From contig CAWHFW010000007.1 of NCBI GenBank assembly GCA_963828735.1, forward strand, positions 1 to 52,276: a stretch of 52,276 nt of DNA. Direction: 5' to 3'. A program made the position numbers and the translations under genes. The DNA is from an uncultured Gemmatimonadales bacterium (GTDB lineage Bacteria > Gemmatimonadota > Gemmatimonadetes > Gemmatimonadales > GWC2-71-9). The notes below the pieces were generated by a model, which was not told the DNA's origin, did no database searches, and was given only the letters and a program-made list of their open reading frames with translations. Positions 16,239 to 40,324 of this stretch are shown here, piece by piece (the first letter of the stretch is position 1; each line of letters opens with the position of its first letter).

Positions 16239-16577
16239 GCCATCGGTGCAGGTGCGCCGGCGCGCGGCCGGCGCTCGACGTGCCCGCCGGGGCGCTGCAG
16301 TAGTCGCCACGAATGCGTTAGGTGACCACCGGCGGTTGAGGTAGTGGCGCCTACTGACGCGCCCCTCTGGGCACGTCAGCGCCGCCCGCGCGCCTGGGTC
16401 CCGGGAGGGCGCGCGCCGCCTTCCCGGATGGTCGCGGCGCGGGGGCGACGGGATGGCTCCCGCAGGGCGCGTCAGTAGACGCCACTACCTCAACCGCTGG
16501 TAGCAGCCCAACGCCTGCGTGGCGGCTACTGTGGCGCCCGAAGGGAGCTATCCCGGCGCACCCGCGCCGGGCGCGCA
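16239..16577 (+). repeat. Dual-hairpin element copy 1 (full length)
   Basis: Head GCCATCGGTGCAGGTG, hairpin H1 16261-16392, central hairpin 16401-16427, hairpin H2 16434-16569. Confidence 0.95.
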
Positions 16578-16723
16578 GAGCCGCAGAAGTACGCGGATCT
16601 CGATGGCACCGCGGGCATACTGCCACACGATGGTCCACGCCACGCTGAAAAGCCACCGGTCCGTTCCCCCTTCGCTAGCAGAATGAGCTGCCACCTAACG
16701 TCACACCTCCGGCGGAGCTCCAT

Positions 16724-16972
16724 CTGCGCGCACCGTGGTTCGAGATCGTGGGACCGGTGCGTGGCCCACAGACCATCGCGACGTCGGATCGCATTCGCGA
16801 GCTTCCGCGCCTGCTCAAGCAGTACGGACGCGGGCGGTGGCGAAAGCGGAAGGGATTTGCGACGGTGCGCCTGGTCGATGGTACGGTGCGACAGGCGGAG
16901 ATACATTGGTACGAAGCGACCGGTGTCGGCCGGAAGGAACTCAAAATCAAGCGCTACCTGGATCTGCCATGA
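16724..16972 (+). CDS. Small basic hypothetical protein (putative toxin); start uncertain (CTG 16724 or GTG 16748)
   Basis: WFEIVG...IRELPRLLKQYGRGRWRKRKG...AEIHWYEATGVGRKELKIK; ATGA overlap with next gene. Confidence 0.75.
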   Translation: MRAPWFEIVGPVRGPQTIATSDRIRELPRLLKQYGRGRWRKRKGFATVRLVDGTVRQAEIHWYEATGVGRKELKIKRYLDLP

Positions 16973-17253
16973 GCCGGAAAGCCGGATTCGTCCTCTGCAT
17001 CGACACCGGGGAATACCCCACCTCCCTGCAGCACCGGAAATTGTACGAGGTGCGCCCTGACGCGGACGCCGAAGCGCACGGCCAGCTGAGGATCGTGGAT
17101 GACTCCGGAGAGGACTACCTCTATCCCCGAGATTACTTTCAGCCCCTCGTGCTGACGCCGTTCCTGAGCCGGCTGCTTCGCGGCGCAGGCAAACAAGCGA
17201 GTAAGGGCCTTCGCCCGGTCCGCCGACCCGCCAAGCTTCGAACCCGGCGCTAG
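16969..17253 (+). CDS. Small hypothetical protein (putative antitoxin/partner)
   Basis: FVLCID..YPTSL..RKLYEV.PD.DA..HGQLRIVDDSGEDYLYP; translationally coupled to upstream gene. Confidence 0.75.
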   Translation: MSRKAGFVLCIDTGEYPTSLQHRKLYEVRPDADAEAHGQLRIVDDSGEDYLYPRDYFQPLVLTPFLSRLLRGAGKQASKGLRPVRRPAKLRTRR

Positions 17254-17256
17254 CGG

Positions 17257-17448
17257 CCCATCGGTGCAGGTGCCGGCGCGCGCCGCCTTCCCGGATGCTC
17301 GCGGCGCGGGGGCGACGGGATGGCTCCCGCAGGGCGCGTCAGTAGACGCCACTACCTCAACCGCTAGTAGCAGCCCCTCGCATGCGTGGCGGCTACTGCA
17401 GCGCCCGAAGGGAGCTAGCCCGGCGCACCCGCGCCGGTGCGCACCGGA
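17257..17448 (+). repeat. Dual-hairpin element copy 2 (H1 deleted)
   Basis: Head joined directly to the central linker at GGCGCGCG; intact H2. Confidence 0.95.
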
Positions 17449-17529: not shown

Positions 17530-20207
17530 ATGCCCGAACTGCTCGGCCGCCTCCAAGCGGCCCTGGTGGACCGCTACCGTCTGGAGCGCGAGATCGGCGC
17601 CGGCGGAATGGCCACCGTCTACTTGGCCCAGGACGTTCGCCATGCCCGGCGAGTTGCCCTCAAGGTGCTTCGGCCCGAGCTTGCCGCCGTGATCGGCGCC
17701 GAGCGGTTCCTGGCCGAGATTCAGCTCACGGCCAACCTGCAGCATCCGCACATCCTGCCGCTGTTCGATTCGGGCGAGGCCGACGGGTACCTGTTCTACG
17801 TCATGCCCTTCGTCGAGGGCGAGACGCTGCGCGACCGGCTCACCCGCGAGAAGCAGCTCGCCGTGCCGGACGCCATCCGCATCGCCGAGGAAGTGGCTGG
17901 CGCGCTCGACTATGCGCATCGTCACGGCGTGGTGCACCGCGACATCAAGCCCGAGAACATCCTGCTGCACGACGGCTCGGCCCTCGTGGCCGACTTCGGC
18001 ATCGCGCTCGCCGCCAGCAAGGCCGGCGGCGCCCGGATGACCGAGACCGGGATGTCGCTGGGGACGCCGCACTACATGTCGCCCGAGCAGGCGATGGGTG
18101 AACGGGAGATCACTGCCCGCTCCGACGTGTACGCGCTCGGCTGCGTGCTGTACGAGATGCTCACCGCCGAGCCGCCGTTCACCGGCGCCACGGCGCAGGC
18201 GGTGGTGGCGCGGGTGGTGACCGAGGCGCCGCGCCCGCTCCACCCCCAGCGCCACACCATTCCGCCGCACGTCGAAGCCGCCGTGCTCACGGCGCTCGAG
18301 AAGCTCCCCGCCGACCGCTTCGCCTCCGCCGCCGACTTCGCGGCGGCGCTCCGGAACAAGGGCTACGCGACGACGACGGCGGTGCCCGCGGCGGACGCGC
18401 CGGCGCGTGCGACACGACGTCGGCGGGACTCGAGGCTGGTGGCGGCGCTCGCGGTGGCCGGCCTCGCCACGGCCGCGGCGCTGTGGGGCTGGCTCCGCCC
18501 GGCTGCCGCGCGAGCCGCTGACGCAGTTCAGCGTCGCGCTGCGCAAGAGCGAGGAGCTACAGCCGCCGCCGACCAGCGGCGGCGGACGGATCGCGATCTC
18601 GCCCGACGGCCGCCAGATCGTGTTCGTGGGCCCGGGCCAGGGATCGAGCCAGCTCTGGCTCCGCCGGCTCGACCAGCTCACCTCCACGCCGATCGCGGGG
18701 ACCGAGGGCGGCTACAGCCCGTTCTTCTCGCCCGACGGCCGCCAGGTCGGGTTCATCAAGAACGGCAACACGCTGCGGATCGCGTCGCTCGACGGGACGC
18801 CGACGGTGACCCTGATCGACACCGCCAACACCACCAGCGCCGACTGGAGCAGCGACGGCTGGGTATACGTCGAGGGCGGCGCCGGCATCATCCGCGTACG
18901 GCCCACCGGCGGACCGGTCGAGCCCGTGTACGCGGTCTCGGCCGAGCGCCACGAGGTCGGCGCCGAATTCCTCAACGCGCTGCCGGACGGCGGCCTCTTG
19001 TTCCGGCTGCGCTACGGGGGCAAGGGCCAGAACGAGTTTCAGATCGGCGCGATGAAGGTGCCAAAGGGCCCCGTGAAGCTGCTGACCCGCGGGGTGTTCG
19101 CACGCTACGCGCCGACCGGCCACCTGATCGTGGTCACCGCCGAGGGAAAGCTGATCGCCTTCCGTTCGATGCGGCCAAGCTCGAGCTCACCGGCCCGCCG
19201 ATCGCGCTGCTGGAGGGCGTCGGGGTCCGGGCCGGCGGGTTCAGCGTGGACCTGGCCCTCTCGCAGAGCGGCACGCTGGTGTACACCACCGGCGGGGCCA
19301 TCGGGGCGCGGCGGGTGGCGTGGGTGACGCGTGAAGGAGGGGCCTCACCGGTGGACCCGGCTGGGACCCGCAGGGCACCATCGACGCCATCGCCCTGTCG
19401 CCCGACGAGAAGACGCTCGCGGTGGCGCTCTCGCGGAACGGGAAGTCGGACATCTGGGTCAAGGCGCTGCCCACCGGCCCGTTCTCCCGGATCACCTTCG
19501 GCGACACCGGCAGCGTTCGTCCGGTCTGGGCGCCCGACGGCCGGTCGCTGCTCTACATCTCGGACCGGGCAGGCTCGGGCGTGGGCCCCGTCTACGAGCA
19601 CCGGGCGGATGGCACCGGGAACGCCACCGTCGTGTTCCGCTCTTCCATGGACTGGGGGCAGATCGTGCCGTCGCGTGACCGGCGGTGGCTGATCCTCAGG
19701 AGCGCCCAGTTGACAGGCAACGCCGGAATCTTCGGAGTCCGCCAGGGCGATACGACCGCGACTCCGCTGGTGAGCTCCGCCGCCACCAACAACTTCCCGG
19801 CGCTGTCACCGGATGAGCGGTGGCTGGCCTACGCATCGGACGAGTCCGGCACCGTGGAGATCTACGTGCGGCCGTTTCCCGAGACCAGCTCGGCCAAGTG
19901 GCAGGTCTCCACCTCCGGCGGGAGCCAGCCGGTCTGGAGCAAGAGCGGCCGCCAGCTCTACTACCTGAACGGCAAGAACGAGCTGGTGGCGGCCGACATC
20001 CGGCCGGGCGCGACCTTCGCCGTGGGGGAGCAGCGGGTGCTGTTCTCGTTCGCGCCCTTCCTCCGGCTGGGGCCGATTCCGTCGTATGCCGTGACCGCGG
20101 ACGACCGCCGTTTCATGATGCTGCGGGAGGGCGAGTCGGCGCAGGAGAGCGAGCTGATCGTGGCGCAGCACTGGCTGGACGGGCTCAAGGGCAAGACCGC
20201 GCGATAG
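17530..20207 (+). CDS. Ser/Thr protein kinase-TM-TolB/PD40 propeller protein; apparent frameshifts near 18500, 19160 and 19360
   Basis: GAGGMATVY, HRDIKPEN, DFG, YMSPEQ; SPDG repeats spread over successive frames; collinear with the intact paralog at 24810-27506. Confidence 0.9.
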
Positions 20208-20318
20208 CGCAGGAAGGCAGGGCAGCTCGGATGGGGTGGCCGGTTTTACCGGCAGGCTGCGATCTCCCTATGCAACCACTCGGCGCGCCGTTGCGCCTCA
20301 CCCCGTCCGGGAGTCCCT

Positions 20319-21869
20319 ATGTCCGCCAGTACCGTCCGGTGCTCCGGCGCGCGTCGCCCATGCGCGCCGGCAGTGCCGACCCTGCTCGCCGCCGCCTTGG
20401 TCGGCCTCCTCGCCTGTAGCGAGGACGAGTCGCCCACCCAGCCCAGCTTCAAGCCTGTCGCCGCCCCCTCGTTCACCGTGAGCCCCTCGACGCTGCAGTT
20501 CGGCGTGCCGCGCGACGCGCCCGCCACGCTCACAGTTACCAGCAAGACCGCGACCACCATCGGCGCGGCGTCAGGTAACGCGACCTGTCTGGTCTCGCCG
20601 GCAAGCGCGGCGCTGACCAGGCCGCAGAAGATGGCGGACTACGTGGCCAGCTTCAGCGTCGCGCCGAGCGCCGCGGCGGCGAGCCCCGGCGGCTGTACGA
20701 TCACCTTCACCGACAAGAAGGGCGGGCAATCGACGGTTGCGGTGACGTTCGTCGCGAGCCAGGTGCGGCTCCGCCAGGCGACCGTCGCCACCGGCAACTA
20801 CCACAGCTGCGCCCTCGACTCGAGTGGCAGCGCCTGGTGCTGGGGTTTCAACCAGTACGGCTCGCTCGGCGACGGGACCACCACGACCCGCTCCGCCCCC
20901 GCCCCCGTGACCGGCGGGCAGACGTTCGCCAGCCTGACAGCCGGCGCCCTGCACACCTGCGGGCTCACCGGCGCGGGCATCGCCTATTGCTGGGGCGGCG
21001 CCGGCACCATCGGCGACGGGGCGCAGGTAGACCGCAGCGTGCCGACGCCGGTCGCCGGCGGGCTCACCTTCATCCAACTCGCGGCCAGCGGCTCCCGAAC
21101 CTGCGGGCTCACGTCCGCCGGCAAGGCGTACTGCTGGGGCCGCAACGCCGAGGGTCAACTCGGCGACGGGACCTTCGACGACCGGCTGGTGCCCACCGCG
21201 GTGAGCAATGCCGTCGGCGGATCGGTGGTCGTGTTCGCCAGCCTCGAGGCCGGGGCCGCGCACACCTGCGGGATCACCGGCGGCGGGAAAGCCTACTGCT
21301 GGGGATACAACGTGAACGGCCAGGCGGGCGATGGGACGCTCAACACCGTTCTCGCGGCGCCGAAGGCGGTCGCCGGCGGCCTGTCCTTCACGGAGCTCAC
21401 GGGCCGAGCCAACAGCACCTGCGGGCTGAGCAGCGGCGCGCTCTACTGCTGGGGCTACAACGGAAACGGTCAGCTCGGCGACGGCACCACCACCGCGCAT
21501 CCGTCGCCGTCGCCGGCCACCGGTGGGCCGTTCGCCTCCCTCGGCGCAGGCAGCACACCCGACCCGGCCCTCGACGGGACCCATGCCTGCGCGCTCACCG
21601 GCACTGGCGCGGCGTTTTGCTGGGGATTGAACTCCTCGGGCCAGGGCGGCGACGGCACCACCGCCGACCACGGCACGCCGACGGCCGTGACCGGCCCTGG
21701 CGGCGGGGCGCCCCTCGCATTTGCGAGCCTCTCCACCGGCCTCGCCCACACCTGCGGCCGGACGACGGGTAACGAGATCTACTGCTGGGGCGCCAACAAC
21801 AGCGGCCAGCTCGCGAACGGCAACGGCAGCCTGAGCACGCCGACGCTCGTCAGCTTCGGCTCGCCCTGA
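20319..21869 (+). CDS. RCC1-repeat lipoprotein
   Basis: LLAC lipobox; about seven HTCG...AYCWGxNxxGQLGDGT-type repeats. Confidence 0.9.
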   Translation: MSASTVRCSGARRPCAPAVPTLLAAALVGLLACSEDESPTQPSFKPVAAPSFTVSPSTLQFGVPRDAPATLTVTSKTATTIGAASGNATCLVSPASAALTRPQKMADYVASFSVAPSAAAASPGGCTITFTDKKGGQSTVAVTFVASQVRLRQATVATGNYHSCALDSSGSAWCWGFNQYGSLGDGTTTTRSAPAPVTGGQTFASLTAGALHTCGLTGAGIAYCWGGAGTIGDGAQVDRSVPTPVAGGLTFIQLAASGSRTCGLTSAGKAYCWGRNAEGQLGDGTFDDRLVPTAVSNAVGGSVVVFASLEAGAAHTCGITGGGKAYCWGYNVNGQAGDGTLNTVLAAPKAVAGGLSFTELTGRANSTCGLSSGALYCWGYNGNGQLGDGTTTAHPSPSPATGGPFASLGAGSTPDPALDGTHACALTGTGAAFCWGLNSSGQGGDGTTADHGTPTAVTGPGGGAPLAFASLSTGLAHTCGRTTGNEIYCWGANNSGQLANGNGSLSTPTLVSFGSP

Positions 21870-21967: not shown

Positions 21968-22173
21968 GGCCGCCCGCGCGCTGGGTCCCGGGAGGGCGCG
22001 GGCCGCCTTCCCGAATGCTCGCCGCGCGGGGGCGACGGGGTAGCTCCCGCAGGGCGCGTCAGTAGCCGCCACACCACTTAACCGCCGGTGGTCTCTTAAC
22101 GCCTGCGTGGCGGCTACTGCAGCGCCCGAAGGGAGCTATCCCGGCGCCCCCGCGCCCCAGCAGCGATCTTCGC
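21968..22173 (+). repeat. Dual-hairpin element copy 3 (linker and H2; H1 replaced by a short hairpin at 21925-21956)
   Basis: CTGGGTCCCGGGAGGGCGCG linker, H2 stems, tail CAGCAGCGATCT. Confidence 0.9.
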
Positions 22174-22192: not shown

Positions 22193-24289
22193 TCAGGAAA
22201 TGCGCACGATCTTCGCGACCGACGGCACCCCGTTCGCGTCCACCACGAACAGCATATAGTGTCCCGGCGGCGCCAGGTTCGGATCCGTCGGCAGCGTGAT
22301 CGTCAGCGTCGACCCGCTCGTGCTGAACGAGAGATAGTTCATCCGCTGATTCATGTTGGTCGCGTGGGTCACGGTCGAGAGCCGGATCCACGTGACCTTC
22401 GCGATGGGCGCGGCGCTCGTGACGGTGACCGGGATGCTCGCGCCATAGCCGGCGTTGTCCGGGGCGCCGCTGAAAGTCGGGCGCACGGCCGCCGACCCGT
22501 CGAGCTTGAACAGGTAGGGCGGCGAGAAGATCTCGCCCGTGTAGTCGTCCGTGAGCCCGGTGGCCGCCGGCTGGCCGCTCCCGACTGACAGCACCCGCGC
22601 GTCCGGCAGCAGCAGCGCGGTGGAGTGGTAGAGCCGGTAGTGCGTCTGCCGGGCGAGCGCCGTCCAGTGCTCGGTCGCCGGATCCCAGCGCTCCGCGGCC
22701 AGGACCCGGTCGTCGGTGGGCTTGGTGTTGAATCCAGCGGCGTTGGACCCGCCGGTCGCCAGCACCGTGCCGTCGGCCAGCAGGGTCGCGTTCATCTGAC
22801 GCCGCGCCACCGCCATCGAATCCACTCGGCGCCAGCTCGGCGCGGCACCCGGATTGAGGTCGATCACCTCGGCGGTCCGAGTTGGGGTTCCGCCGCCCAC
22901 CACCAAGATCTTGCCTGCATCGTACATCACCGCCGAGCCGTAGTCCCGGCCCCCGAACGTCCGGCTCGGACCCGTAGTCCAGGAGCCGTTGCCCGAGGTG
23001 TTGAGGTATCCGGTCGCCTGGTTCGGGCCCGCCACGAACGCCGTGCCGTTCGGAGCGACGAACATCATCGGGAAGTACGGGAGCGAGGCAGTGGCGCTGA
23101 TCAGCCCGCGCCAGGCGCCTTCGCCGTTGATCCCGCCCGGACTCCACACCTCGGGGATCACGTTGAGCACGCCGGCCGTGTCGCCACCGGAGATGGTCAG
23201 GACGTCACCGTTCGGCAGGGTCAGGTTGGTGGGATACCAGCGGCCGTTCCGCATGGTGGCGCCAGGCTGCCAGGTGTTGCTCAAGTAGTCATAGAGCATG
23301 CTGGACATGAGTCCCCTGCCATCCGTACCGGTATGACCGCCGGCCACCAGGATGCGCCCGTCGGGCAGCAGCGTCTGGCCACTGCAGAACAGGTCCACCG
23401 GCTCGTTCACGTCGGTGAAGGCCCCGTTCGCCGGATTCCAGCGCACCGGTAGGTGCACCGTCCGGCCCCAGGTGAGGACCTCGCCGTTGGGGAGCAGGTT
23501 CGCGTGGATCGCGACCGCCGGCGGCGTCGACCAGTTGATGGGACTGCCCCACTCCCCCACGATCGCGACATTTGCGGGTCGGTCGAAGCTGACCACGACC
23601 GTGGTCGCCTGACTCATGGTGACGAGGCACGAGCCGCTGGCAGCTCCCGGGGCGATCGTCCCGTTGGCGTCGCACGTGCCGCCCGCCCAGGCCTTGAGGT
23701 AGCTCCCGCTGGCCGCCGTCGCCGTGAGCGTCACCTGCTGGTTGAGCGTGTAGGACGACGAACAGCCGGTCGCGCCCGCCGACCCGTTCGTGATCGTGCA
23801 GTTGATGCCGGACGGGTTGGAGATCACTGTCCCCCCACCCGCAGCCCCTCCGTTGATGGCGAGAGCGAAGACGTTGGATTGCTGTTCGAAGGTCACCGTC
23901 ACGTCCACGTTTCCGGTCACGGTGACATGGCAGGCCAGGCCGGTGTCCCCGCTGGGAGCGCAATTCGAGCTGACCAGCTTCAGCTTGGCCCCGGTCGCAG
24001 GCGTCATGGTGAGGGTGACGATCGCGCCCGACTTGTAGGCCTGGCTGCACTTCCCGCTCGCCCCCCCGCTGGCCGACACCGTGCAGCTGAGCCCGCCCCG
24101 ATCCGATGTGACAGTGCCGGCGGCCAGGCTTCCGGTGCCCTTGATGGTCACCTGATAGCGATTGTTGACCCGCGCGAACTCGGGCCCGCTGGGGATGTTG
24201 TCATTGCAGGCGGACAGCACGAGGAGTAAGGCCGCAGCGACAGCCGGCCAGGCCGCGAAGGTCGAGCGCGCACGGAACGGGGACACCAT
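22193..24289 (-). CDS. Galactose oxidase-like (AA5, kelch plus DUF1929) copper radical oxidase lipoprotein with N-terminal InlB-B-like repeats
   Basis: LSAC lipobox; DLFCSG, GRWYPT, RLYHST, VTHATN, APPGHYMLFVVD. Confidence 0.9.
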   Translation of the reverse strand: MVSPFRARSTFAAWPAVAAALLLVLSACNDNIPSGPEFARVNNRYQVTIKGTGSLAAGTVTSDRGGLSCTVSASGGASGKCSQAYKSGAIVTLTMTPATGAKLKLVSSNCAPSGDTGLACHVTVTGNVDVTVTFEQQSNVFALAINGGAAGGGTVISNPSGINCTITNGSAGATGCSSSYTLNQQVTLTATAASGSYLKAWAGGTCDANGTIAPGAASGSCLVTMSQATTVVVSFDRPANVAIVGEWGSPINWSTPPAVAIHANLLPNGEVLTWGRTVHLPVRWNPANGAFTDVNEPVDLFCSGQTLLPDGRILVAGGHTGTDGRGLMSSMLYDYLSNTWQPGATMRNGRWYPTNLTLPNGDVLTISGGDTAGVLNVIPEVWSPGGINGEGAWRGLISATASLPYFPMMFVAPNGTAFVAGPNQATGYLNTSGNGSWTTGPSRTFGGRDYGSAVMYDAGKILVVGGGTPTRTAEVIDLNPGAAPSWRRVDSMAVARRQMNATLLADGTVLATGGSNAAGFNTKPTDDRVLAAERWDPATEHWTALARQTHYRLYHSTALLLPDARVLSVGSGQPAATGLTDDYTGEIFSPPYLFKLDGSAAVRPTFSGAPDNAGYGASIPVTVTSAAPIAKVTWIRLSTVTHATNMNQRMNYLSFSTSGSTLTITLPTDPNLAPPGHYMLFVVDANGVPSVAKIVRIS

Positions 24290-24389
24290 GGATCACCTGG
24301 GGGAGAGGGCGAGGTAATCTGTCGCCTGGATCCAGGGGCCGTAAGGGTAGTGACTGCCCAGGGACGCGCGGGTCAGGTGGGAGGGGCAA

Positions 24390-24743
24390 GCCATCGGTGC
24401 AGGTGCGCCGGCGCGCGGCCGGCGCTCGACGTGCCCGCCGGGGCGCTGCAGTAGTCGCCACAAATGCGTTAGGTGACCACCGGCGGTTGAGGTAGTGGCG
24501 CCTACTGACGCGCCCCTCTGGGCACGTCAGCGCCGCCCGCGCGCCTGGGTCCCGGGAGGGCGCGCGCCGCGTTCCCGAATGCTCGCGGCGCCGGGGGCGA
24601 CGGGGTAGCTCCCGCAGGGCGCGTCAGTAGACGCCACTATCTCAACCTCTTGTAGCAGCCCCACACCTGCGTGGCGGCTACTGCAGCGCCCGAAGGGAGC
24701 TATCCCGTCGCCCCTGCGCCCAGCACCGATCTCCGCGCGGTCG
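24390..24743 (+). repeat. Dual-hairpin element copy 4 (full length)
   Basis: H1 almost identical to copy 1; terminal inverted repeat ATCGGTGC...GCACCGAT. Confidence 0.95.
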
Positions 24744-24809: not shown

Positions 24810-27506
24810 CTACTTCGCGCCCTGCGCGGCCAGCTGCTGCACCCAGTTCTCCGCTACTATCAGCTCCCCCGGCTGCCCAGCCTCGCCCTCCCGCAGCATC
24901 AGGAACCGCTTGTCGTCCGGGCTCAGCCAGAAGCTCGGCACCGAGCCCACCCCGGCGAACGGCACCATCGAGAACAGCACCCGCTGCGCGCCGACCGAGA
25001 AGGTCGTGCCCGGGGGGATCTGCGCCGCGACCATGTCGTTCTTGCCGTTCACGTAGAGCAGCTCGCGCCCGGTACTCGACCAGGTGGGCTGGGAACCGCC
25101 CGCGGTGGAGACCTGCCACTTGGCGCCCGCGGTCTCCGGGAACGGGCGCACGTAGACCTCCAGCGCGCCGGACTCGTCCGAGGCGTACGCCAGCCAGCGG
25201 CCGTCCGGGGAGAGGTTCGGGAACAGCTCGCTCGACGCCGAGACGACCAGCGGCACCGGCGTGGAGTCGCCGAGCCGGACCCCGAGGATGTCGGGCGTGG
25301 CGGGCGGCGCGGGCGCGGTCCGGAGCAGGAGCCAGTGACCGTCGCGCGCGGCCATCACCTGGCCGATGTCCACGTCCGCCTGGGCCACCAACCGTGGGGC
25401 ACCGGTCCCGTCCGACCGGCGGGCGTACACCGGGCCTACGCCCGAGCCCGAACGGTCGGCGATGAAGTACACGTCCTTGCCATCGGCCGACCAGGCGGGC
25501 CGCCCGCTCGAGGTGTCGTTGAAGGTGAGCCGAGAGAACGGCCCCGCCGGGAGCCGCTTGACCCAGATGTCCCTCCGGCCCTCCCGGGTGAGCGCCACGG
25601 CGATCGCTTTCCCGTCGGGCGACAGGGCGGCCGACCCGATGATGCCCTGCGGGTCCCAGGTGGAATCCACCGCGGTCGCGAACCCCTCGCGGCTGACCCA
25701 GGCGGCGCGCCGGGTGGCCTGCGTGCCTCCGGTGGTATAGGCCAGCGTGCCATTCCCAGCCAAGGTGAGGTCGATGTTGAAGGCGTTGTTCCGCACGCCG
25801 ACGCCCTCGAGCAGCGCGATCGGCGAGCCGGTCGTTTCGACCTTCTTCGGATCGAATGGGATCCCGATCAGTTTGCCGTCCACCGTCACCACCAGCAGGT
25901 AGCCGGCGGCGTAGGTCGCGAACACGCCGCGGACCAGCGCGCGCGCGGGGCCGTGCGGCAGCGGCATCGCCAGGATCTGGAAGTCGGCGGGCCCCTGGCC
26001 CACGTGGCGCAGCCGGAACAGCACCCCGGTGGCGCCGGGCAGGACGTGCACCCACTCGGTGGCGATCTCCTTGTCCTTGGTGTTGATCTTGTACACCGGC
26101 TCGGTCTCGCCACCGGTCGCGCGAATGCGGGCCACCCCCGAGTCCACCTCGAAGTAGATGTAGCCGTCGTCGCCCCAGGTGGCCGAGGTGGTGTTCGCCT
26201 TGTCGGTGAGCGTCACGGTCGGCGCGCCGGCGAGCGACGCGATCCGCACCTCGGTGCCGTTCTTCACGAACCCGACCCGGCGGCCGTCAGGCGAGAAGAA
26301 CGGCTGCGACGCGCCGTCGGTGCCCGCGATCGGGGTCGCGTCGAGCTGGTCGATGCGACGGAGCCAGAGGCGGGTCCCCGACTCGGCGGGGCCGATGTAC
26401 GCCAGCGCGCGGCCGTCGGGCGAGAGCGCGATGCGGGCGCCGCCCGACGGGCTGGCCGCCTGGAGCGCCTGCGCGGACTTGAGCGCCAGGCTGAACTGGC
26501 TCAGGAGCGGCGCGGGCGGCGGATGGCGCCGAGCCCACACCCCCGCCCCGGCCGCGAGGCCGAGCGCCAGGGCCAGCACCGGCACGAGCACGCCGAGCCA
26601 GCCCGGACGCACGCGTGCGCGCGCCGCCGCGGCCGCCGGCCCTGTCGCCGGCACGGGCACGGTCGCCGCGTACGACGGGTCGCGGAGGGCGGCCGCGAAC
26701 TCGGCCGCCGAGGCGAACCGGTCGGCCGGCAGCTTCTCGAGCGCGGTGAGCGTCGCCGCCTCGACCTGGCGGGGAATGGTGTGGCGCTGCGGCAGGAGCG
26801 GCCGCGGCGTCTCGGTCACCACCCGCGCCACGATCGCCTGCGCGGTCGAGCCGGTGAACGGCGGATCGCCCGTGAGCATCTCGTAGAGCACGCAGCCGAG
26901 CGCGTACACGTCCGACCGGGCGGTGATCTCGCGCTCGCCCATGGCCTGCTCGGGCGACATGTAGTGCGGGGTGCCGAGGCTCATGCCCGTCTCGGTCATG
27001 CGGCTCCCGCTGGCCTTGCTGGCGGCGAGCGCGATGCCGAAGTCCGCCACCAGCGCCTGGCCGTCGTGGAGCAGGATGTTCTCGGGCTTGATGTCGCGGT
27101 GCACCACGCCATGGCGGTGAGCGTAGTCCAGCGCCGACGCGACCTCGGTCGTGATGCGGATGGCTTCCGCAACCGGGAGCTGCTTCTCGCGATTCAGCCG
27201 CTCGCGCAGGGTCTCGCCCTCGACGAAGGGCATGACGTAGAAGAGGTAGCCGTCGGCCTCGCCCGAGTCGAACAGCGGCAGGATGTGCGGGTGCTGCAGG
27301 TTGGCCGTGAGCTTGATCTCGGCCAGGAACCGCTCGGCCCCGATCACGGCGGCGAGCTCGGGCCTGAGGACCTTGAGCGCGACGCGCCGGTCGTGGCGGA
27401 TGTCCTCGGCGAGGTAGACCGTGGCCATGCCGCCCGCGCCGGCTTCGCGGTCGAGGCGGTAGCGGTCCGCCAAGGCGGACTGGAGTCGGCCGAGCAGTTC
27501 GGGCAT
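24810..27506 (-). CDS. Ser/Thr protein kinase-TM-TolB/PD40 propeller protein (intact)
   Basis: Full Hanks kinase motifs, TM helix, multiple FSPDG/LSPDG repeats. Confidence 0.95.
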   Translation of the reverse strand: MPELLGRLQSALADRYRLDREAGAGGMATVYLAEDIRHDRRVALKVLRPELAAVIGAERFLAEIKLTANLQHPHILPLFDSGEADGYLFYVMPFVEGETLRERLNREKQLPVAEAIRITTEVASALDYAHRHGVVHRDIKPENILLHDGQALVADFGIALAASKASGSRMTETGMSLGTPHYMSPEQAMGEREITARSDVYALGCVLYEMLTGDPPFTGSTAQAIVARVVTETPRPLLPQRHTIPRQVEAATLTALEKLPADRFASAAEFAAALRDPSYAATVPVPATGPAAAAARARVRPGWLGVLVPVLALALGLAAGAGVWARRHPPPAPLLSQFSLALKSAQALQAASPSGGARIALSPDGRALAYIGPAESGTRLWLRRIDQLDATPIAGTDGASQPFFSPDGRRVGFVKNGTEVRIASLAGAPTVTLTDKANTTSATWGDDGYIYFEVDSGVARIRATGGETEPVYKINTKDKEIATEWVHVLPGATGVLFRLRHVGQGPADFQILAMPLPHGPARALVRGVFATYAAGYLLVVTVDGKLIGIPFDPKKVETTGSPIALLEGVGVRNNAFNIDLTLAGNGTLAYTTGGTQATRRAAWVSREGFATAVDSTWDPQGIIGSAALSPDGKAIAVALTREGRRDIWVKRLPAGPFSRLTFNDTSSGRPAWSADGKDVYFIADRSGSGVGPVYARRSDGTGAPRLVAQADVDIGQVMAARDGHWLLLRTAPAPPATPDILGVRLGDSTPVPLVVSASSELFPNLSPDGRWLAYASDESGALEVYVRPFPETAGAKWQVSTAGGSQPTWSSTGRELLYVNGKNDMVAAQIPPGTTFSVGAQRVLFSMVPFAGVGSVPSFWLSPDDKRFLMLREGEAGQPGELIVAENWVQQLAAQGAK

Positions 27507-27627: not shown

Positions 27628-27981
27628 GCCTTCGGTGCAGGTGCCGGCGCGCGGCCGGCGCTCGACGTGCCCGCCGGGGACGCTGCAGTCGCCGCCACGC
27701 ATGCGTTGGGCTGCTACCAGCGGTGGAGGTAGTGGCGTCGACTGACGCGCCCCTCTGGGCACGTCAGCGCCGCCCGCGCGCCTGGGTCCCGGGAGGGCGC
27801 GCGCCGCGTTCCGGGATGGTCGCGGCGCGGGGGCGCCGGGATGGCTCCCGCAGGGCGCGTCAGTAGACGCCACTACCTCCGCCTTTAGTAGCAGCCCCAC
27901 GCCTGCGTGGCGGCTACTGCAGCGCCCGAAGGGAGCTATCCCGGCGCCCCCGCGCCGCCAGCAGCGATCTCCGCGCGGTCG
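27628..27981 (+). repeat. Dual-hairpin element copy 5 (full length)
   Basis: Head, H1, linker, H2 and tail CAGCAGCGATCTCCGCGCGGTCG. Confidence 0.95.
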
Positions 27982-28087
27982 AACCGCTTGACTTGCCTCG
28001 CCGCCGCCGTGGAGGCACTATTGTCGCACCCCCCTCTTACCATCGTTCGTCAGCCGTTCGCTGCCGTTCCGCACGCAAGGGCTCACC

Positions 28088-31000
28088 ATGCGGTCTCGCA
28101 GGGTTGCACGCGGCCTCGCCGTCCTGGCGCTGGCCTCCGCCACCTCCTGGCTCGGCTGTGGGGGTGGCTCCGACATCACCTCTCCGCAAACGGGCGGCCT
28201 CGACGTCACGACCGCCACGTCCGGCCCCGAGCCCGACGCCGACGGCTACACCATCAGCATCGACGGCGCGGCGGCCGAGCCCATCGCCGTCAACGCGACC
28301 CGACACGCGGAGGAGCTGGCCACGGGGCAGCACACCGTGGCGCTCGCCGGGCTCGCGGGCAACTGCACCGCGGGAGCCGGCACCAGCGCGACGGTCGAGG
28401 TCACGGCGAGCGCGACGGCGAGCGTGCGCTTCGAGGTGGCCTGCGCGGCGACGGTGGGCACGCTCGAGGTCACGACCACGTCCACCGGGACGCCGTCCGA
28501 TCCCGACGGGTACCAGCTCCAGCTCGACGGTGGGGTCGTGGGGCCGATCGCGGTCGGCGCGACGGTCTCGATCCCGGGCGTCGCTTCCGGCAGCCACACC
28601 GTCGCGCTCGGCGACCTCGCGTCGAACTGCGCCGTGGACGGCGAGAACCCCCGCAGCGTTACCGTCGCCGCCGGCGCGACGACGAGCGCTACGATCGCGG
28701 TCGCCTGCACCACTCCCAACGCCGCCGCCGGCGACCGGGCGGCATCAGCGTCACGACCCAGACGAGCGGTCCCGATGCCGACCCCGACGGATACACCGTG
28801 TCGCTCGACGCCACCGGCGCGCTTCCCATCGGCAGTGCCGCGACCCTGCCGCTGCCCGACCTCGCACCCGGGCCGCACACCGTGGGGCTCAGCGGCCTCA
28901 GCGCGAACTGTCGGCTGGCGGGCGACAACCCGCGGAGCGTGACCGTCTCCGCCGGGACGGTGGCACCCGTCGCCTTCGTCGTCACGTGCACTGCCCTGCC
29001 GCCCTCGACCGGCACGCTCGCGATCAGCGCCAGCACGACCGGTCCCAACCAGGACCCCGACGGCTACGCCTTCGCCATCGGCCAGGGCGATGCCCAGCCG
29101 ATCGGCGTGAACGGCTCGGCCAGCGTGGACGGACTGGCGCCCGGCAGCCACTCGGTGCTGCTGAGCGGAGTGGCGGCCAACTGTACCGTCGCGGGCAACA
29201 ACCCGCGCAGCGTGAGCGTCACGGCCGGCGACACGACGAAGGTCGCGTTCAGCGTCACGTGCACGCCCGCCACCGGCTCGCTCACGATCACCACCGCGAC
29301 GACGGGTGCGCCCGCCGACCCCGATGGGTATACGGTGCGCCTCGACGGCGCGGCGCCGAGCGCGATCGGTACGAACGCCAGTGTCACGCTGGACGCGCTC
29401 GCGCCCGGCCAGCACGCCGTCCTCCTCGGCGGCTTCGCCGCCAACTGCAAGGCGCAGGGACAGAATCCGCGGACCGTCACCGTCTCCGCCGGTGAGACGG
29501 TCACGGCGGCGTTCGCCGTCGTTTGCACCACCACGACCGGCGCCTTGAGGGTCACCATCACCGGGCTCCCGGCGGGGACGAACGCGGCTGTGACCGTCAG
29601 CGGCCCCGGCGGGTTCAGCCGCGCGGTGACCGCGACCGCGCTCATCGCCGATCTCGCGCCGGGCAGCTACACCGTCGCCGCGTCGGACGTGTCGAGCGGC
29701 GGCACGCAATACAAGGCGAGCCCGGCGAGCAGCACGGTCGCGGTCGCGGCTGGCGACACGGCCGGCGCGACGGTCACCTACGGCCCGGCGGCCGGGCCCT
29801 CGCTCAACCTGCGCATCGACGGCTGGTTCCTGACGCAGAGCGTGCAATCCGCCGCGGGCGACGTGCCGCTGATCGAAAACCGCGACGGGTTCATCCGCGT
29901 GTTCGTCGTGGCCGACCAGCCCAACACCGTGCAGCCCACCGTGCGGCTGCGCCTGTTCCGGAACGGCGGCCTGACCCGCACGTTCGTCATTCCCGCGCCG
30001 GGGTCGTCCACGCCCCAGCAGCGGAACGAGGACGATCTCTCCAGCTCGTGGAACGTGAAGCTCCCGCGCGACCTGTTCAGCCCGGGGCTCACCGTGCTGG
30101 CGGACGTCGATCCGACCAACGCGATCGCCGAGAAGAACGAGACCGACAACAGCTACCCGGCGACCGGCACGCCCCAGCAGACGACGATGGTGAGCGTGCC
30201 GCCGCTGGGGGTGCGCTTCGTGCCGGTTCGCCAGCAAGCGAACGGCCTCACCGGCGACGTCTCCGCCGCCAACAAGGCGGCGTTCCTCGATCTGACCCGT
30301 CGGATTTATCCGATCTCGACGGCGGACGGCGACCTGCACGGGGTCTACACGACCACGACGGCCGACCCCCTGGTCCCGGACGACGCCAACGGCGCGTGGG
30401 TGACGATCCTGGGCGAGGTGGACGCCCTCCGCCTGGTCGAGGGGAGCGAACGCAACTACTACGGCGTCGTGCGGCTCGGCTACGCGTCCGGCACCGCCGG
30501 GATCGGCTACCCCGGGAAACCCACCGCGCTCGGGTACGACCTGGACTTCGACCGGGCGCGCGTGATGGCGCACGAGCTGGGGCACAACTTCAACCGCCAG
30601 CATACGCCCTGCGGAGGGCCTGCAGGCGTCGATCCGAACTACCCATATGCCGGAGGCCTCACCGGCGTCTACGGGTACGACCTGCAGAACGACGTGATCA
30701 AGAGCCCGCTGCTGTCCGACATCATGGGGTACTGCTCCAACCCCTGGATCAGCGACTACACGTACGACGGCGTCGCCGAGTTCCGGAGCGGACAGGCTGC
30801 GGCGGCAATGCAGTCCGCCTCGGCGCCGCAGCGCTGCCTGCTCGTGTGGGGACGCATCGTCAATGGCCGGCCCGTGCTCGAGCCGGCGTTCGAGATCGTG
30901 ACCAGGCCGAGCCTGCCGAAGGCGCGCGGGTCGTACTCGGTGGAGGCCGTGGGGCAGGACGGGTCGCGGCTCTTCAGCCTGTCGTTCGACGCCACGGCGG

Positions 31001-31371
31001 TCGAGGATAGCCGGGCCGACGCGCGGCAGTTCGCGTTCGCCGTGCCGCTCGGCGATACGCCGGGGGAACGGTTGGGGTCGCTCAGGTTGGCCGGCCCCGG
31101 TGGCACCGTCGAGGCCGCGCGTGCGCCGGCGCCGATGGCTGCGGCGAGAGCGGCGCCCGCGATCGAGGCGCGGGCGGTGGCGGGCGGGGTCGCACTGCGG
31201 TGGGACGCGACGGCGCACCCGATGGTCATGGTGCGCGACCCGGATACCGGCGAGGTAGTGTCCTTCGCCCGCGGCGGGGCGGCCAACATTGTCACCAAGA
31301 AGGCGACGTTGGACGTGGTGCTATCGGATCGGGTGGGGAGCAGCCGGGTCCGGGTCATCTCCCGGCCTTGA
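28088..31371 (+). CDS. Lipoprotein with five tandem Ig-like DPDGY repeats and an M66-like zinc metallopeptidase domain; apparent frameshift near 28735
   Basis: WLGC lipobox; repeats D.DGY...G.H.V.L.G...NC; HELGHNFNRQHTPCG, DIMGYC, WISDYTY. Confidence 0.85.
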
Positions 31372-31400: not shown

Positions 31401-31686
31401 GTGTGCAGGCGCCACGGCCGGAGACGACATGCCCTCCGGGGTCGCTGCAGCAACTGCTACGCTCGCGTGGCTGGTTCGGAGTTCTGTGGCAGTTGCTGAC
31501 GCGCCCCTCCGGTCATGTCATCTCCGGCCGCGCGCCTGGGTACCGGGAAGGCGCATCCACGCGTTCCGAGATGGTCGCGGCGCGGGGGCGACGAGATGGC
31601 TCGCAGGGCGTCCACCCGCTACGCGGGTACCGGTAGACGCCATTACCTCAATCGCTGGTGGTCCTTAACGCGTATCGCGGCACTAC
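31401..31686 (+). repeat. Dual-hairpin element copy 6 (type-B H1, degenerate H2)
   Basis: GACATGCCC...CAGCAACTGCTAC-25nt-GTGGCAGTTGCTG; linker CCTGGGTACCGGGAAGGCG; H2 remnants. Confidence 0.85.
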
Positions 31687-31749
31687 CACACCGGCCTGCG
31701 ACGTCCTGCGTCCAGGTCAGAAGCCGGTCCCAGTGCCATTATCGTAGCA

Positions 31750-33454: not shown

Positions 33455-33570
33455 CGTGCGGGCGCCGGCGCGCGGCCAGCGATGACATGCCCTCGGGGGT
33501 CGCTGCAGCAAACTGCTACGCTCGCGTGGCGAGATCGGCGCACGGTGGCGGTTGCTGACGCGCCCTTCTG
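33455..33570 (+). repeat. Dual-hairpin element copy 7 (truncated type-B H1 only)
   Basis: GCCGGCGCGCGGCC...GACATGCCC...GCTACGCTCGCGTGG...GTGGCGGTTGCTGACGCGCCC. Confidence 0.85.
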
Positions 33571-33590
33571 CCGAGCACCCGCTGGCGGCG

Positions 33591-33690
33591 GAGCTTGACC
33601 GCCGCCAGGCCGCATGAGCAGGCGGTGACGCCCACGCCAGACCTCGCCCATCCCGCCCCCACCCCTCCGCCAGCCCTTCCCAGAGATACC
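33591..33690 (-). pseudogene. Remnant of a Ser/Thr kinase N-terminus
   Basis: GGGMGEVWRGRHRLLMRP then, after a frame change, AAVKL (subdomains I-II); nothing follows. Confidence 0.6.
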
Positions 33691-36462: not shown

Positions 36463-36525
36463 CGGTGCCGCCGCCCGCCCGTTGTATCCGTCAGCACGAC
36501 CGCCTGGTCGGCGTCGATCGCGTTA

Positions 36526-36860
36526 CGTGCCGGCACGCGGCCGGATGACATGCCCTCCGGGGTCGCTGCAGCAACCGCTACGCTCGCGTGGTAGGATCGG
36601 AGTGCTGTGGCGGTTGCTGACGCGCCCCTCCGGGCACGTCATCCGGCCGCGTGCCTGGGTACCGGGAAGGCGCGAGCGGGGATCCGCGTGGGCGCGTCTC
36701 CGTGTTCCGCGATGCTGGTGGCGCGGGCGCGTCGGGATGGCTCCCGCAGGGCGCGTCAGTAGCCGCCACTACCTCAACCTCTAGTAGCAGCCCCACGCAT
36801 GCGTGGCGGCTACTGCAGCGCCCGAAGGGAGCTATCCCGACGCGCCCGCGCCTGCGCCGG
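36526..36860 (+). repeat. Dual-hairpin element copy 8 (type-B H1 plus type-A H2)
   Basis: Both hairpins intact with compensatory changes; extended linker. Confidence 0.92.
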
Positions 36861-36882
36861 ACCGCCGCCGGTCGGCCCGGAC

Positions 36883-37203: not shown

Positions 37204-37208
37204 GCGCC

Positions 37209-37237: not shown

Positions 37238-37386
37238 GTAGCAGAATTTCTTTTCCCCACGCTTGCACATTGACCACATTTCCACAGCGAAAAATGCCGA
37301 CGCGCGCCGCGCGGGAGCCACTGTCGCGCCCTTGACTTCCCCCGCCGCGGAGCGATGCTGCGAGAGCCTACGCCCTGGGAGCCGCC

Positions 37387-40101
37387 GTGTTCCGCTACCG
37401 CCTCACGCCGATCTTGCTGGCCGCCTTCGTCCTGACGGTGTTCGTCCTGCCGGCGTTCTATGCGCTCATCACCGACTGGTGGTGGTTCCGCGAGATCGGG
37501 TACCAGGTCGTCTTCACCCGCGAGCTGTCCACCCGGGTGCTGCTCTTCCTGGCGGCGGGCGGGCTGACCGTCGGCGTGCTCTACCTGAATCTCCGGGCCG
37601 CGCAGCGCGGGCTCGTCCCCAACCCGGTCGTGCTCCGGCTCGCGCCGACGGCGCCGCACCTCAACCTCACGGCGGCGTTGCGGCGTCTGAGCCTGCCGGT
37701 GGCGCTCGTGCTGGGCCTGCTCGCCGGGCTGGCCGCCGCGTCAGGCTGGGAGCTCGTGCTCCGCGCCTTCTACGGCACCCCGTTCGGGATCGCGGATCCG
37801 ATCTTCTCGCGTGACATCGGCTTCTACGTCTTCACGCTGCCCGCGCTCTCGGCGGGGATGGGGTTCCTGACCGCGCTGAGCCGGCTCTGCCTCTTCCTGG
37901 TGATCGCGCTCTACTGGGTGCGCGGCGACGTCGTGCTGGGACCGCGCGGCCTGAGCATCGAGCCGGCGGCGGGCCTGCACCTGGCCATCCTACTGGCAGT
38001 GCTGTTCCTCCTGACCGCGCTCCGCCTGTGGATGGTGGAGATCCCCGGCCTCCTCTATTCGACCACCGGGCCGCTGGTCGGCGCCAGCTATACCGACCTG
38101 CACGCCGAGCTGCCCGCGCTCCGGGTGTCGGCGGTGCTCGCGGTGATCGTGGCGGTCGCCGTGCTGATCGGGGGTTTCCAGCGGCAGCTCGGCCTGTACG
38201 GGGTGCTGGCGATCGGAGCCTATGTGGTCGTGGCCGTCGTCGGCCGCGGCCTCTTCCCGCCGGCGATGCAGAAGCTCCTCGTGGCACCGACCGAGCTGAC
38301 GCGCGAGACGCCCTACCTCCGGTATCACATCCTCGCTACCCGCCGCGCCTGGGGGATCGACAGCGTGGAGACCCGCGAGCTCAACGGCGAGGCCGATCTG
38401 ACGCTGGCCGACATCCGGGCCAACGCGCCGACCATCGACAACGTGCGGCTGTGGGACCGGGACCCCCTGCTCCTGACCTTCGGGCAGCTGCAGGAGATCC
38501 GCACCTACTACGACTTCGTCAGCGTGGACGACGATCGGTACTGGATCGACGGGAAATACCGGCAGGTCCTGCTCTCGCCGCGGGAGCTCAATGCGGCGTC
38601 GCTCCCGACCCGGACCTTCATCAACGAGCACCTGACGTTCACCCACGGCATGGGGCTCACGCTCGGTCCGGTCAACCAGGTCACCAGCGAAGGCCTGCCC
38701 GTACTGTTCGTCAAGGACCTGCCGCCGGTCTCGACCGGGTCGCTCAAGATCACCCGGCCACAGATCTACTACGGCGAGCTGGCCAACGAGTACGTGTTCG
38801 TGCGGACCCGGCAGCGGGAGTTTGACCACCCGGAAGGCGAGACCAACGTCTACGCCCCCTACACCGGATCGGGCGGCGTCCGGGTCGGGAACCTTCTCCG
38901 CCGCATGCTGCTCGCCGCCCGGTTCGGCTCCTCGAAGATCCTGCTGTCGCAGGACATCACCAACGACAGCCGGGTGCTCTACTACCGCAACGTCAAGGAG
39001 CGCGCCGAGCGGGCGCTGCCGTTTCTTCGGTTCGACCGCGATCCCTATCTCGTGATCGCGGCGGACGGGAAGCTCGAGTGGATCCTCGATGCCTACACCA
39101 CTACGGATGGCTACCCGTACGCCGAGCCCATGCGGGACGGCACCAACTACATGCGCAACAGCGTCAAGCTCGTCATCGACGCCTACGACGGCTCGCTCAA
39201 GGCTTTCGTGAGCGCCCCGACCGATCCGCTGATCCGGACCTGGACGCGCATCTTCCCCGGGATCTTCGCTCCGCTGGACAGCATGCCGGCCGACCTGAGG
39301 GCACACATTCGCTACCCCGACGACCTCTACCGGGTTCAGACCGCCCTCTACACGACCTATCACATGGATGCGCCGGAGGACTTCTACCACCGGGAAGACC
39401 AGTGGCAGATCCCCACGGTCGCCGAGTCCTCGGCGACCGTGCCGTTCATGCGGCACATCGTCATGCGCCTGCCGGAGGAGGCGAAGGCCGAGTTCATCTA
39501 CATGGTGCCCTTCACGCCGCGCGGGAAGGACAACCTGGCGGCCTGGATGGTGGCCCGGAACGACGGGGCGGAGTACGGCAAGCTGCGGGTGTACCGACTG
39601 TCGCGGCAGAGCCTGGTGTACGGCCCGCAGCAGATCGAGAACCGGATCAACCAGGACACCGAGATCTCGCGCCAGCTCTCGCTGTGGGACCAGCGCGGCT
39701 CCACCGTGATCCGGGGCGACCTGCTGGTGATCCCGATCGAGAAATCGCTGATGTACGTGCAGCCGATCTACCTGCAGGCGGAGGGCGGGCGGATTCCGGA
39801 GCTCAAGCGGGTCGTGGTGGCGTATCAGAACCGGGTGGTGATGCAGGAGACGCTGGAGGGCGGGCTCACCGAGCTGTTCGGCGGCTCCTCTCAGCCGCGC
39901 CCGCAGCCTACTCCGGACCTCGGCGCTGCCGCGCCGCCCACGGACTCGGGCTTCCGGGCACTCGTCGCCGAGGCGAGCAAGCGGTACGAGGCGGCGCTCG
40001 AGGCGCAGCGGAACATCGACTGGGCTCGCTACGGGGAGGAGTTCAAGCGGCTGGGCGAGGTGCTCAAAAAGCTGCGCGACGGGGAGGCTGAGCGGCGGTA
40101 G
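37387..40101 (+). CDS. UPF0182 family membrane protein
   Basis: TDWWWF, DPIF..DIGFYVF, NVRLWD, QEIRTYYDF, FTHGMG, YMRNSVK, IPELKRV. Confidence 0.95.
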   Translation: MFRYRLTPILLAAFVLTVFVLPAFYALITDWWWFREIGYQVVFTRELSTRVLLFLAAGGLTVGVLYLNLRAAQRGLVPNPVVLRLAPTAPHLNLTAALRRLSLPVALVLGLLAGLAAASGWELVLRAFYGTPFGIADPIFSRDIGFYVFTLPALSAGMGFLTALSRLCLFLVIALYWVRGDVVLGPRGLSIEPAAGLHLAILLAVLFLLTALRLWMVEIPGLLYSTTGPLVGASYTDLHAELPALRVSAVLAVIVAVAVLIGGFQRQLGLYGVLAIGAYVVVAVVGRGLFPPAMQKLLVAPTELTRETPYLRYHILATRRAWGIDSVETRELNGEADLTLADIRANAPTIDNVRLWDRDPLLLTFGQLQEIRTYYDFVSVDDDRYWIDGKYRQVLLSPRELNAASLPTRTFINEHLTFTHGMGLTLGPVNQVTSEGLPVLFVKDLPPVSTGSLKITRPQIYYGELANEYVFVRTRQREFDHPEGETNVYAPYTGSGGVRVGNLLRRMLLAARFGSSKILLSQDITNDSRVLYYRNVKERAERALPFLRFDRDPYLVIAADGKLEWILDAYTTTDGYPYAEPMRDGTNYMRNSVKLVIDAYDGSLKAFVSAPTDPLIRTWTRIFPGIFAPLDSMPADLRAHIRYPDDLYRVQTALYTTYHMDAPEDFYHREDQWQIPTVAESSATVPFMRHIVMRLPEEAKAEFIYMVPFTPRGKDNLAAWMVARNDGAEYGKLRVYRLSRQSLVYGPQQIENRINQDTEISRQLSLWDQRGSTVIRGDLLVIPIEKSLMYVQPIYLQAEGGRIPELKRVVVAYQNRVVMQETLEGGLTELFGGSSQPRPQPTPDLGAAAPPTDSGFRALVAEASKRYEAALEAQRNIDWARYGEEFKRLGEVLKKLRDGEAERR

Positions 40102-40147
40102 CGGCGGTGAGCGGTAGCGGTGGTGAGCGGTAGCGGTGGTGAGCGGT
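40095..40147 (+). repeat. 16-bp tandem repeat (GCGGTAGCGGYGGTGA) x3.3
   Basis: Direct reading; first unit contains the UPF0182 stop codon. Confidence 0.85.
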
Positions 40148-40161
40148 CCCAGTGACGAGCG

Positions 40162-40324
40162 ATCGGTGGTACAGGTGACGGCACACGGCCGGCGATGATC
40201 GTGCCCGGAGGGGCGCGTCAGCAACCGCCACCGTACTCCGAACCAGCCAGCGAGCGTAGCGGTTGCTGCAGCGTCCCCGGAGGGCATGTCAGCGCCGGCC
40301 GCGCGCCTGGCTCCCGGGAAGGCG
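40162..40324 (+). repeat. Dual-hairpin element copy 9 (type-B H1 with inverted core)
   Basis: Head GGTACAGGTG and linker CCTGGCTCCCGGGAAGGCG in forward order; core is the reverse complement of the copy 6 core. Confidence 0.9.

Follow-up and report, generated by a model that had tools for sequence, protein, structure and literature searches.

Hairpin repeats between reordered, direction-keeping accessory genes in uncultured soil Gemmatimonadales suggest a gene-shuffling arrangement

A hairpin module family between accessory genes

The Gemmatimonadales are soil bacteria, abundant and barely cultured. The 52,276-nucleotide stretch of DNA analysed here (the window) is the whole contig C7 of the genome assembly G000 of an uncultured member of this order (4.78 Mb in 7 contigs, 97.5% complete, 5.2% contaminated). 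It contains an array of repeats, all built from one hairpin module of ~135 nt, between accessory genes encoding Ser/Thr kinases, an RCC1-repeat protein, a galactose-oxidase-like protein, a TPR protein and UPF0182. The module family is almost confined to one group of uncultured soil Gemmatimonadales, and the position of its copies between genes that are reordered in relatives but keep their direction suggests a gene-shuffling arrangement.

An earlier note on this DNA had described nine ~340-bp elements with a constant head-H1-linker-H2-tail polarity, located in nine of ten intergenic gaps longer than 100 bp. The re-made gene list gave the same count: ten such gaps lie at 14.6-41.0 kb and only one, 20208-20372, is empty. 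All nine sites are present, but only five of them (16239, 24390, 27628, 36526 and 31401; 67-94% identical) are two-hairpin elements, or doublets; 17257 and 21968 hold the right module alone, 33455 and 40162 the left module alone. H1 and H2 are not separate parts but one module in opposite orientations. The head/tail polarity is uniform at all nine sites, whereas the full layout occurs only in the doublets and the inner hairpin is inverted at 40162. The first 16 kb, said to be free of copies, contain a weak half-module remnant of 18 bits at ~12.75 kb; together with a second weak remnant it stretches the array to ~12.75 and ~41.78 kb. As homologues were found in many other genomes, the array is not a product of chance.

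Fold of the module

The stems of the module are compensatory, the loops are purine-rich, and a 2x2 bubble position is never paired. Along the forward strand, a variable GC-rich outer arm is followed by a purine-rich loop (GNA versus GGA/GAA), GGGCGC, the unpaired GT versus CA/TG, CAG and three pairs that covary freely; then come a stem containing CG, a loop rich in C and A, and finally the partner arms. In an alignment of 57 modules, 91.1% of the cells were paired, compared with 71.8% in shuffles (0/500 as high) and 35-53% in slid controls, and 29 of the 37 pairs showed two-sided changes; five of the 57 rows are loci matching the unpublished genome G095, on which the model R1 and its counts thus partly rest. 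Since relatives can beat shuffles and inverted repeats may be corrected as DNA, these values demonstrate a maintained hairpin, not an RNA. Among 204 distinct modules, bubble position 1 was never Watson-Crick (204/204) and position 2 was not in 189. The outer-arm mismatches of the same modules are skewed on the forward strand (G.T 244 versus A.C 57, G.A 198 versus T.C 33), and with DNA parameters the forward strand gave the lower fold in 166 of the 204.

The modules stand back to back in 59 of 61 doublets, that is, in 39 of 41 genome cases (the other two are tandem) and in 20/20 metagenome cases. A doublet offers one folded site on each strand. One face-to-face module pair was found in G033. 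A small separate hairpin is seen in the module core, or replacing the 3' outer arm after the purine loop, at window 31610-31635, L001:16198-16350, L002:8324-8477, L042 and L055. Many modules are also accompanied by 7-8-nt tandem repeats, often mirrored on both sides (window 40100-40161; L190, L212, L159).

Distribution and polarity

Model R1 matched 80 of 103 genomes of the genus at E <= 1e-4 (G000 and three unpublished genomes included) and 0 of 140 genomes from other genera of the order at E <= 1e-7. Of 82 metagenome stretches, 79 were analysed and 77 contained the module; the count for viral contigs searched for the module is 0. Pattern matches outside the Gemmatimonadota are chance, except for L307, a 4.9-kb contig with a true module that is possibly misbinned. 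Both modules and genomes are related, and none of these counts is independent. The family was undescribed in the literature searched, which covered few subscription journals. Its earlier description as undescribed, without an Rfam match and neither a canonical attC site nor a REPIN is borne out by the Rfam, box, tag and RAYT tests, which were all negative.

Same-polarity arrays were found in G025 (C20), G020 (C6), G122 (C3 and C6) and G117 (C5); G031 C3 mostly keeps one polarity, with one opposite single module. In G000, the array subfamily is also present at C5 2,686-2,702 kb, with three right modules on the same strand, and at a single place on C3, where it is mirrored by a probable assembly fold-back. 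At this location (C3 231.9-250.5 kb) lies an inverted duplication of 5,960 bp with 98.9% identity, probably a fold-back artefact, and the mirrored module pair within it was counted as a single locus. A second subfamily is dispersed on both strands; G000 has ten of its modules, and G031 and G025 have many. Hence, fixed polarity is a property of arrays and not of the whole family. The earlier note had named random orientation genome-wide with ordinary target-site duplications, or a match to a known family, as evidence against its view; the dispersed subfamily is mixed in orientation, but the arrays keep their polarity and no known family was matched.

The 3' side of the module faces a stop codon in 159 cases and a start codon in 105, at a median of 28-45 bp from the stop, and some copies lie between divergent genes. 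The array zone is located mid-replichore, ~1.1 Mb from dnaA (C5 1.603 Mb).

Reordering without inversion

In relatives, the regions that hold arrays correspond to a single zone of G000 (C5 ~2.46-2.70 Mb, C3 186-250 kb and C7), in scrambled order. In G025, block A (16.7-17.25 kb) recurs at 81% identity with a doublet on either side, and in G113 it adjoins a collapsed copy. A gene 82-84% identical to the kinase at 24.8-27.5 kb is likewise flanked by doublets in G025; its orthology is uncertain, as kinases are rich in paralogues. Both blocks have copies at their borders in G000 as well as in G025, and their neighbours differ between the two genomes. Across eight array regions, with the G000 contigs oriented by KOPS-like words, 41 of 43 in-zone blocks kept their direction per region (13/13 for G031), compared with 9 of 17 out-of-zone blocks, the zone limits being drawn after seeing the data. 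This tally is independent of left/right labels; strand calls from hexamers and GC skew were too noisy. For the cassette-recombination site proposed earlier, the reordering without inversion offers indirect support.

Filled and empty junctions

Several core-gene junctions that are empty in G000 carry one or two modules in other species; examples are probably ispF with its upstream gene, moaA-trmL, hisG-pdxA and dnaA-rpmH. Because dispersed copies occupy core-gene junctions that are empty in other species, the family spreads, and these filled and empty junctions support the earlier suggestion of a non-autonomous mobile element. The flanks of the pairs are 71-88% identical, too distant to tell gain from loss or to read a target duplication; a 4-nt gene overlap is repeated at one junction, for which selection could also account. 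L190 and L212 carry modules in opposite orientation at the same site. L176 and L201 have the left block and the module in common, and their divergence starts at the foot of the outer arm. In L223 and L162, a kinase gene gives way after its first 15 codons to the start of a low-GC gene of secreted-enzyme type, directly beside a doublet, which suggests that foreign DNA was captured next to the copy.

Search for a mobilising enzyme

In agreement with the earlier note, no transposase, integrase or reverse transcriptase family was matched among the 35 + 9 + 2 open reading frames (ORFs) scanned in the window. Searches of G000 found no Y1_Tnp, no matches to the IS110 C-terminal domain (PF02371) or reverse transcriptase (PF00078), and, in a genome 97.5% complete, no integron integrase over the cut-off. 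IS91-type Y2 enzymes gave 0 matches, which is uninformative because the control was silent too. There are eight tyrosine-recombinase matches in G000, none at an array. The linkage check proposed earlier (RAYT/HUH, tyrosine recombinase, IS110, reverse transcriptase) thus revealed no enzyme linked to copies in G000 or at the loci examined. Half-site scans for an autonomous form found no arm pair enclosing a transposase.

Several candidates were rejected. The only serine resolvase gene of G000 (C5 595 kb) is far from the copies. RAYT is absent from G000; it occurs in 15 of 36 genus relatives, mostly those without strong matches, and is not flanked by modules. An att scar derived from a tRNA was dismissed, as no tRNA adjoins any array and the module profile matches no tRNA locus. 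A role at the terminus or dif does not fit either, since a dif-like site is located at C1 ~122 kb and the arrays are mid-replichore, ~1.1 Mb from dnaA. This dif-like site coincides with the switch of GGGNAGGG polarity; the most skewed 8-mer is GGGCAGGG (G000 C1 ~122260; C5:1603453).

A small GIY-YIG nuclease was suggested by one shared junction and rejected, as the repeat at 48 such loci is a different one and none of these loci holds a module. These nuclease genes (~95-100 aa) are bracketed at several unrelated loci by inverted TGTC/CGTC/AGTC-tagged repeats resembling repetitive extragenic palindromes (REPs), in a manner like insertion sequences or REPtrons (L230-L279, e.g. L237, L262, L269; G000 C5:2446978-2447271), and the same repeat was found within the doublet linker in L060 and L130. 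No paper on this arrangement was found in the literature searched. CGTC REPs are described as having no dedicated transposase (PMC3733652), so the GIY-YIG nuclease may be a candidate partner of CGTC REPs.

Proposed mechanism and alternative explanations

We put the chances at about even that the module is a non-autonomous single-strand hairpin element moved in trans, whose direct copies serve as joints where blocks are excised and re-inserted. The module, a conserved hairpin with one favoured strand, would be recognised as a folded single strand, probably of DNA rather than RNA, and an enzyme encoded elsewhere would copy or move it; two modules back to back would form the ~335-bp doublet. Recombination between two copies facing the same way would delete the intervening block, and the excised block could re-insert at another copy, with the copies as putative joints, and would then be moved but not turned round. 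We favour as the actor a single-strand recombinase or nuclease that recognises structure and works in trans, aided by ordinary homologous recombination between copies. A more elaborate variant, which we regard as rather unlikely, is a shuffling system of the genus's own: back-to-back pairs of attC-like folded single-strand sites, away from any integron locus, would be served in trans by a tyrosine recombinase or nuclease, promoter-bearing multi-kb blocks would be shuffled in a ~350-kb zone without being inverted, and gene-less copies would seed core operons.

Several results weigh against the element moved in trans with copies as joints. The link between copies and moves is inferred, because for many shared blocks the nearest copy in one of the genomes is as much as 23 kb away, and the zone of ~350 kb in G000 is far larger than its copy-bearing part. 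Its limits were drawn post hoc, and the direction of C7 rests weakly on 1 versus 3 KOPS-like words. With the first left/right labels, just 46 of 73 gene pairs (38 shared non-kinase families) matched the element polarity. Of the 27 disagreeing pairs, 23 fall between two genome groups and vanish when labels are swapped in G020, G028, G115 and G122; 69/73 pairs and 34/38 families then agree, the rest being one four-gene block, but the swap was post hoc. No excision joint at a copy was seen among 15 listed of 181 joints in four runs of contigs, and the run contigs break at the copies. In the module itself, the mismatch bias of the inner stem is opposite to that of the outer arms (A.C 97 versus G.T 44), RNA parameters favour the forward strand in just 127/204 modules, and the outer arms are matched in 195/204; crossovers within the module between unlike copies must therefore be rare. 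No candidate enzyme was found beside the copies, either among the window ORFs or among the 30 of 188 candidate hidden ORFs scanned, which matched no mobile-element family. Modules were absent from 11 Y1 loci of relatives and from 13 of 14 integron-integrase loci; at the other, one module lies 3.3 kb from intI, beyond unrelated genes.

Alternatively, the copies could be passive, REP-like selfish repeats that were locally amplified and occupy the gaps of a region that tolerates them; any reordering would then be due to RecA-type recombination, between copies or between other repeats, or to gene gain and loss, with no dedicated chemistry. Dispersed mixed-strand copies at core genes would fit, as would the frequent half-deleted copies, the many moved blocks without an adjacent copy, and the finding that copies are of the genome's own type although shared blocks are ~80% identical; direct repeats alone would keep orientation. 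We nevertheless hold this to be doubtful. Bubble and core stay invariant across the genus while arms and loops turn over, which calls for a specific reader. Moreover, arrays of uniform polarity are found in five or more of the genomes with long contigs, and the break between L176 and L201 is sharp at the arm foot. Far less probable still is a function as RNA, such as a bidirectional terminator, a stabiliser or an RNase III site in neighbouring 3' regions. Long compensated stems with tandem G.A-type loops and the short median distance from the stop codon (28-45 bp) agree with it. Nevertheless, no Rfam family was matched, copies also occur between divergent genes, array polarity ignores gene direction, and in the commonest layout the mRNA would carry the worse-folding strand; RNA runs X18-X20 contain only 0.07-0.10 of the words. 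A repeated structured RNA is thus the weakest of the options in the earlier note.

We also think it improbable, more so than passive repeats and less so than an RNA, that the module is a diverged attC site with its AAC/GTT box now CCC/GGG-like, used in trans by IntI or a relative and spread as gene-less cassettes. IntI passes the cut-off in 32 of 103 genus genomes, and the IntI loci of the genus carry canonical attC sites; G000 has four without intI on C2 709026-714120, a cluster of attC sites lacking an integrase (CALIN). As CALINs may lack intI, its absence from G000 is by itself no decisive evidence against membership. The forward strand of the module aligns in register with the bottom-strand consensus of 24 genus attC sites: the two agree in their GCGC-R-TCAG and CTGCA-GCGC halves and in the distance to the R-box position, but the module has other bases in place of AAC/GTT and is one T short. 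A model of the 24 sites gave in-register matches (E 0.095-2.6) to five of the six right modules that are intact in the window but to none of seven left modules, and elsewhere it matched 8 of ~59 modules (forward strand) and 2 of 41 divergent modules, all weakly (E 0.05-4.9); an unrelated hairpin outscored the modules. In a matrix test against 806 other hairpin strands and 1,000 random windows, the module median came close to the 96th percentile, but only post hoc and with the missing-T column dropped; with this column kept there was no signal. Folding bias and G.T skew resemble those of attC bottom strands (PMC5027507), cassettes are able to insert across genomes (10.1101/2022.09.11.507474), and the 3' side faces stop codons more often than starts (159 versus 105). 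Against a diverged attC site, the RYYYAAC...GTTRRRY box was found at 0/9 window sites on either strand, whereas the same search recovered canonical sites at IntI loci, and recombination can drop sharply when both partners carry the same change at triplet position 2 or 3 (PMC2811028). IntI is not enriched with copies (12/27 copy-rich versus 6/20 listed copy-free genomes), no attC/module hybrid was found, and genes run both ways in multi-kb blocks. The attC likeness is a lead, not membership. In relatives, L381, L388, L390 and L394 contain complete or partial integrons with long GC-rich attC sites.

If the non-autonomous element moved in trans is the correct reading, the repeat would spread as a hairpin element and at the same time mark reordering without inversion, linking REPIN-like selfish repeats with integron-like cassette sites, which are generally treated as separate classes. 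The module, with its invariant bubble and favoured strand, provides a defined substrate for a direct recombination test, and bears on the origin of cassette sites and on whether large promoter-bearing cassettes can be shuffled. Passive repeats would instead represent a new genus-specific repeat family of modest interest.

Features of the window

The features of the array are listed below. A contig from run X5 spans 23977-24621 with 3 differences and is partly independent, as X5 belongs to the same study as the best holder.

Coordinates of modules, remnants and enclosed blocks in the window
Position	Strand	Feature	Detail
12736..12820	-	weak half-module remnant, array polarity	18 bits, E 0.007
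16239..16572	+	full doublet	left module 16254-16395 folds on minus; linker; right module 16435-16569 folds on plus
16679..17253	+	block A	two small overlapping ORFs, no Pfam family
17257..17440	+	head fused straight to right module 17302-17436	left module deleted
21968..22165	+	linker and right module 22022-22157	
24390..24724	+	full doublet	left module 24406-24546 (minus), right module 24586-24721 (plus)
24810..27506	-	Ser/Thr kinase-PD40 gene flanked by two doublets	
27628..27960	+	full doublet	left module 27643-27783 (minus), right module 27823-27957 (plus)
31401..31721	+	doublet	left module 31408-31537 intact; right module decayed, small hairpin inserted in core
33455..33598	+	left module only, 33460-33590 (minus)	one outer arm gone
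36526..36856	+	full doublet, longer linker	left module 36525-36656 (minus), right module 36719-36853 (plus)
40162..40328	+	left-type head and tail, inner hairpin inverted	module 40179-40308 on plus
41747..41824	-	half-module remnant (one arm), array polarity	21.5 bits, E 0.0006

A kinase gene (17530-20207) and an Ig-like repeat gene (27993-31371) are each broken across several frames, by sequencing indels or decay. A lone T4 gp19-like tail-tube gene (6338-6955) adjoins two stretches encoding large proteins without a Pfam family (7217-8761 and 8773-12294). A gene for a BTAD-domain regulator is present in two diverged copies (71-79%) at 42661-45261 and 48051-50590, ~5.35 kb apart. Elsewhere in G000, genes of apparently foreign origin are found at the contig ends (C3 past 250 kb, C5 past ~2.705 Mb), as is a second tmRNA, which fits the 5% contamination.

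Comparison with known systems

No Rfam family reached its gathering threshold in the window; the best score was 38 bits, compared with 168 for a plant microRNA hairpin. With REPINs and GTAG/CGTC REPs (PMC3337134, PMC3733652, PMC6006769) the modules share that they are extragenic, non-coding hairpins, occurring as singles and as inverted doublets, lineage-specific, often just past stop codons and apparently moved in trans. The inverted foldable doublet, a REPIN trait, is present, and the module core has CGTC followed by A. Yet the module measures 120-160 nt with a loop of 25-60 nt, compared with 20-65 nt and a 2-20-nt loop in REPs; its copies number tens and not hundreds, flank no RAYT and form polar arrays over tens of kb. 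A GTAG/GTGG tag at the free 5' foot is absent from the modules. The three bases after CAG vary with their partners (57/57 paired at two columns), so GTAG is stem and not tag. CGTC REP families 1-4 have a terminal CGTC, an A-T-started stem of 8-9 bp, a 4-5-nt loop and a CCA tail (PMC3733652), whereas CGTC in the module is internal in a longer stem of ~13 bp, with a 25-60-nt loop. In the main text of that paper, Gemmatimonas is unmentioned; the supplements could list further repeats.

Like miniature inverted-repeat transposable elements, the modules are small and non-coding, with inverted ends and filled and empty sites. They differ in that the arms are imperfect in a conserved, strand-specific way with free sequence, and no autonomous partner with these ends was found. 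CTX-type attP is a folded single-strand site that hijacks XerC/D. By analogy with XerC/D sites, folding of a strand with mismatches at its centre could recreate a recombinase site, and nearly all genus genomes searched encode two Xer-like recombinases; dif, however, has no arm in common with the module, and the arrays are away from the terminus.

The module differs from integron attC sites and CALINs in having no R box, long matched arms outside the box position, back-to-back doublets and no adjacent intI; in contrast to the co-oriented, mostly single-gene cassettes of integrons, the genes of its arrays face both ways in multi-gene blocks, there is a site on each strand, and dispersed copies lie at core genes. 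In common with integrons, sites of the same polarity and similar size lie between accessory genes, with a favoured folding strand with G.T and purine skew (PMC4889954, PMC5027507), unpaired stem bases and an order shuffled without inversion; the likeness to the L box of the genus's own attC sites is weak and post hoc.

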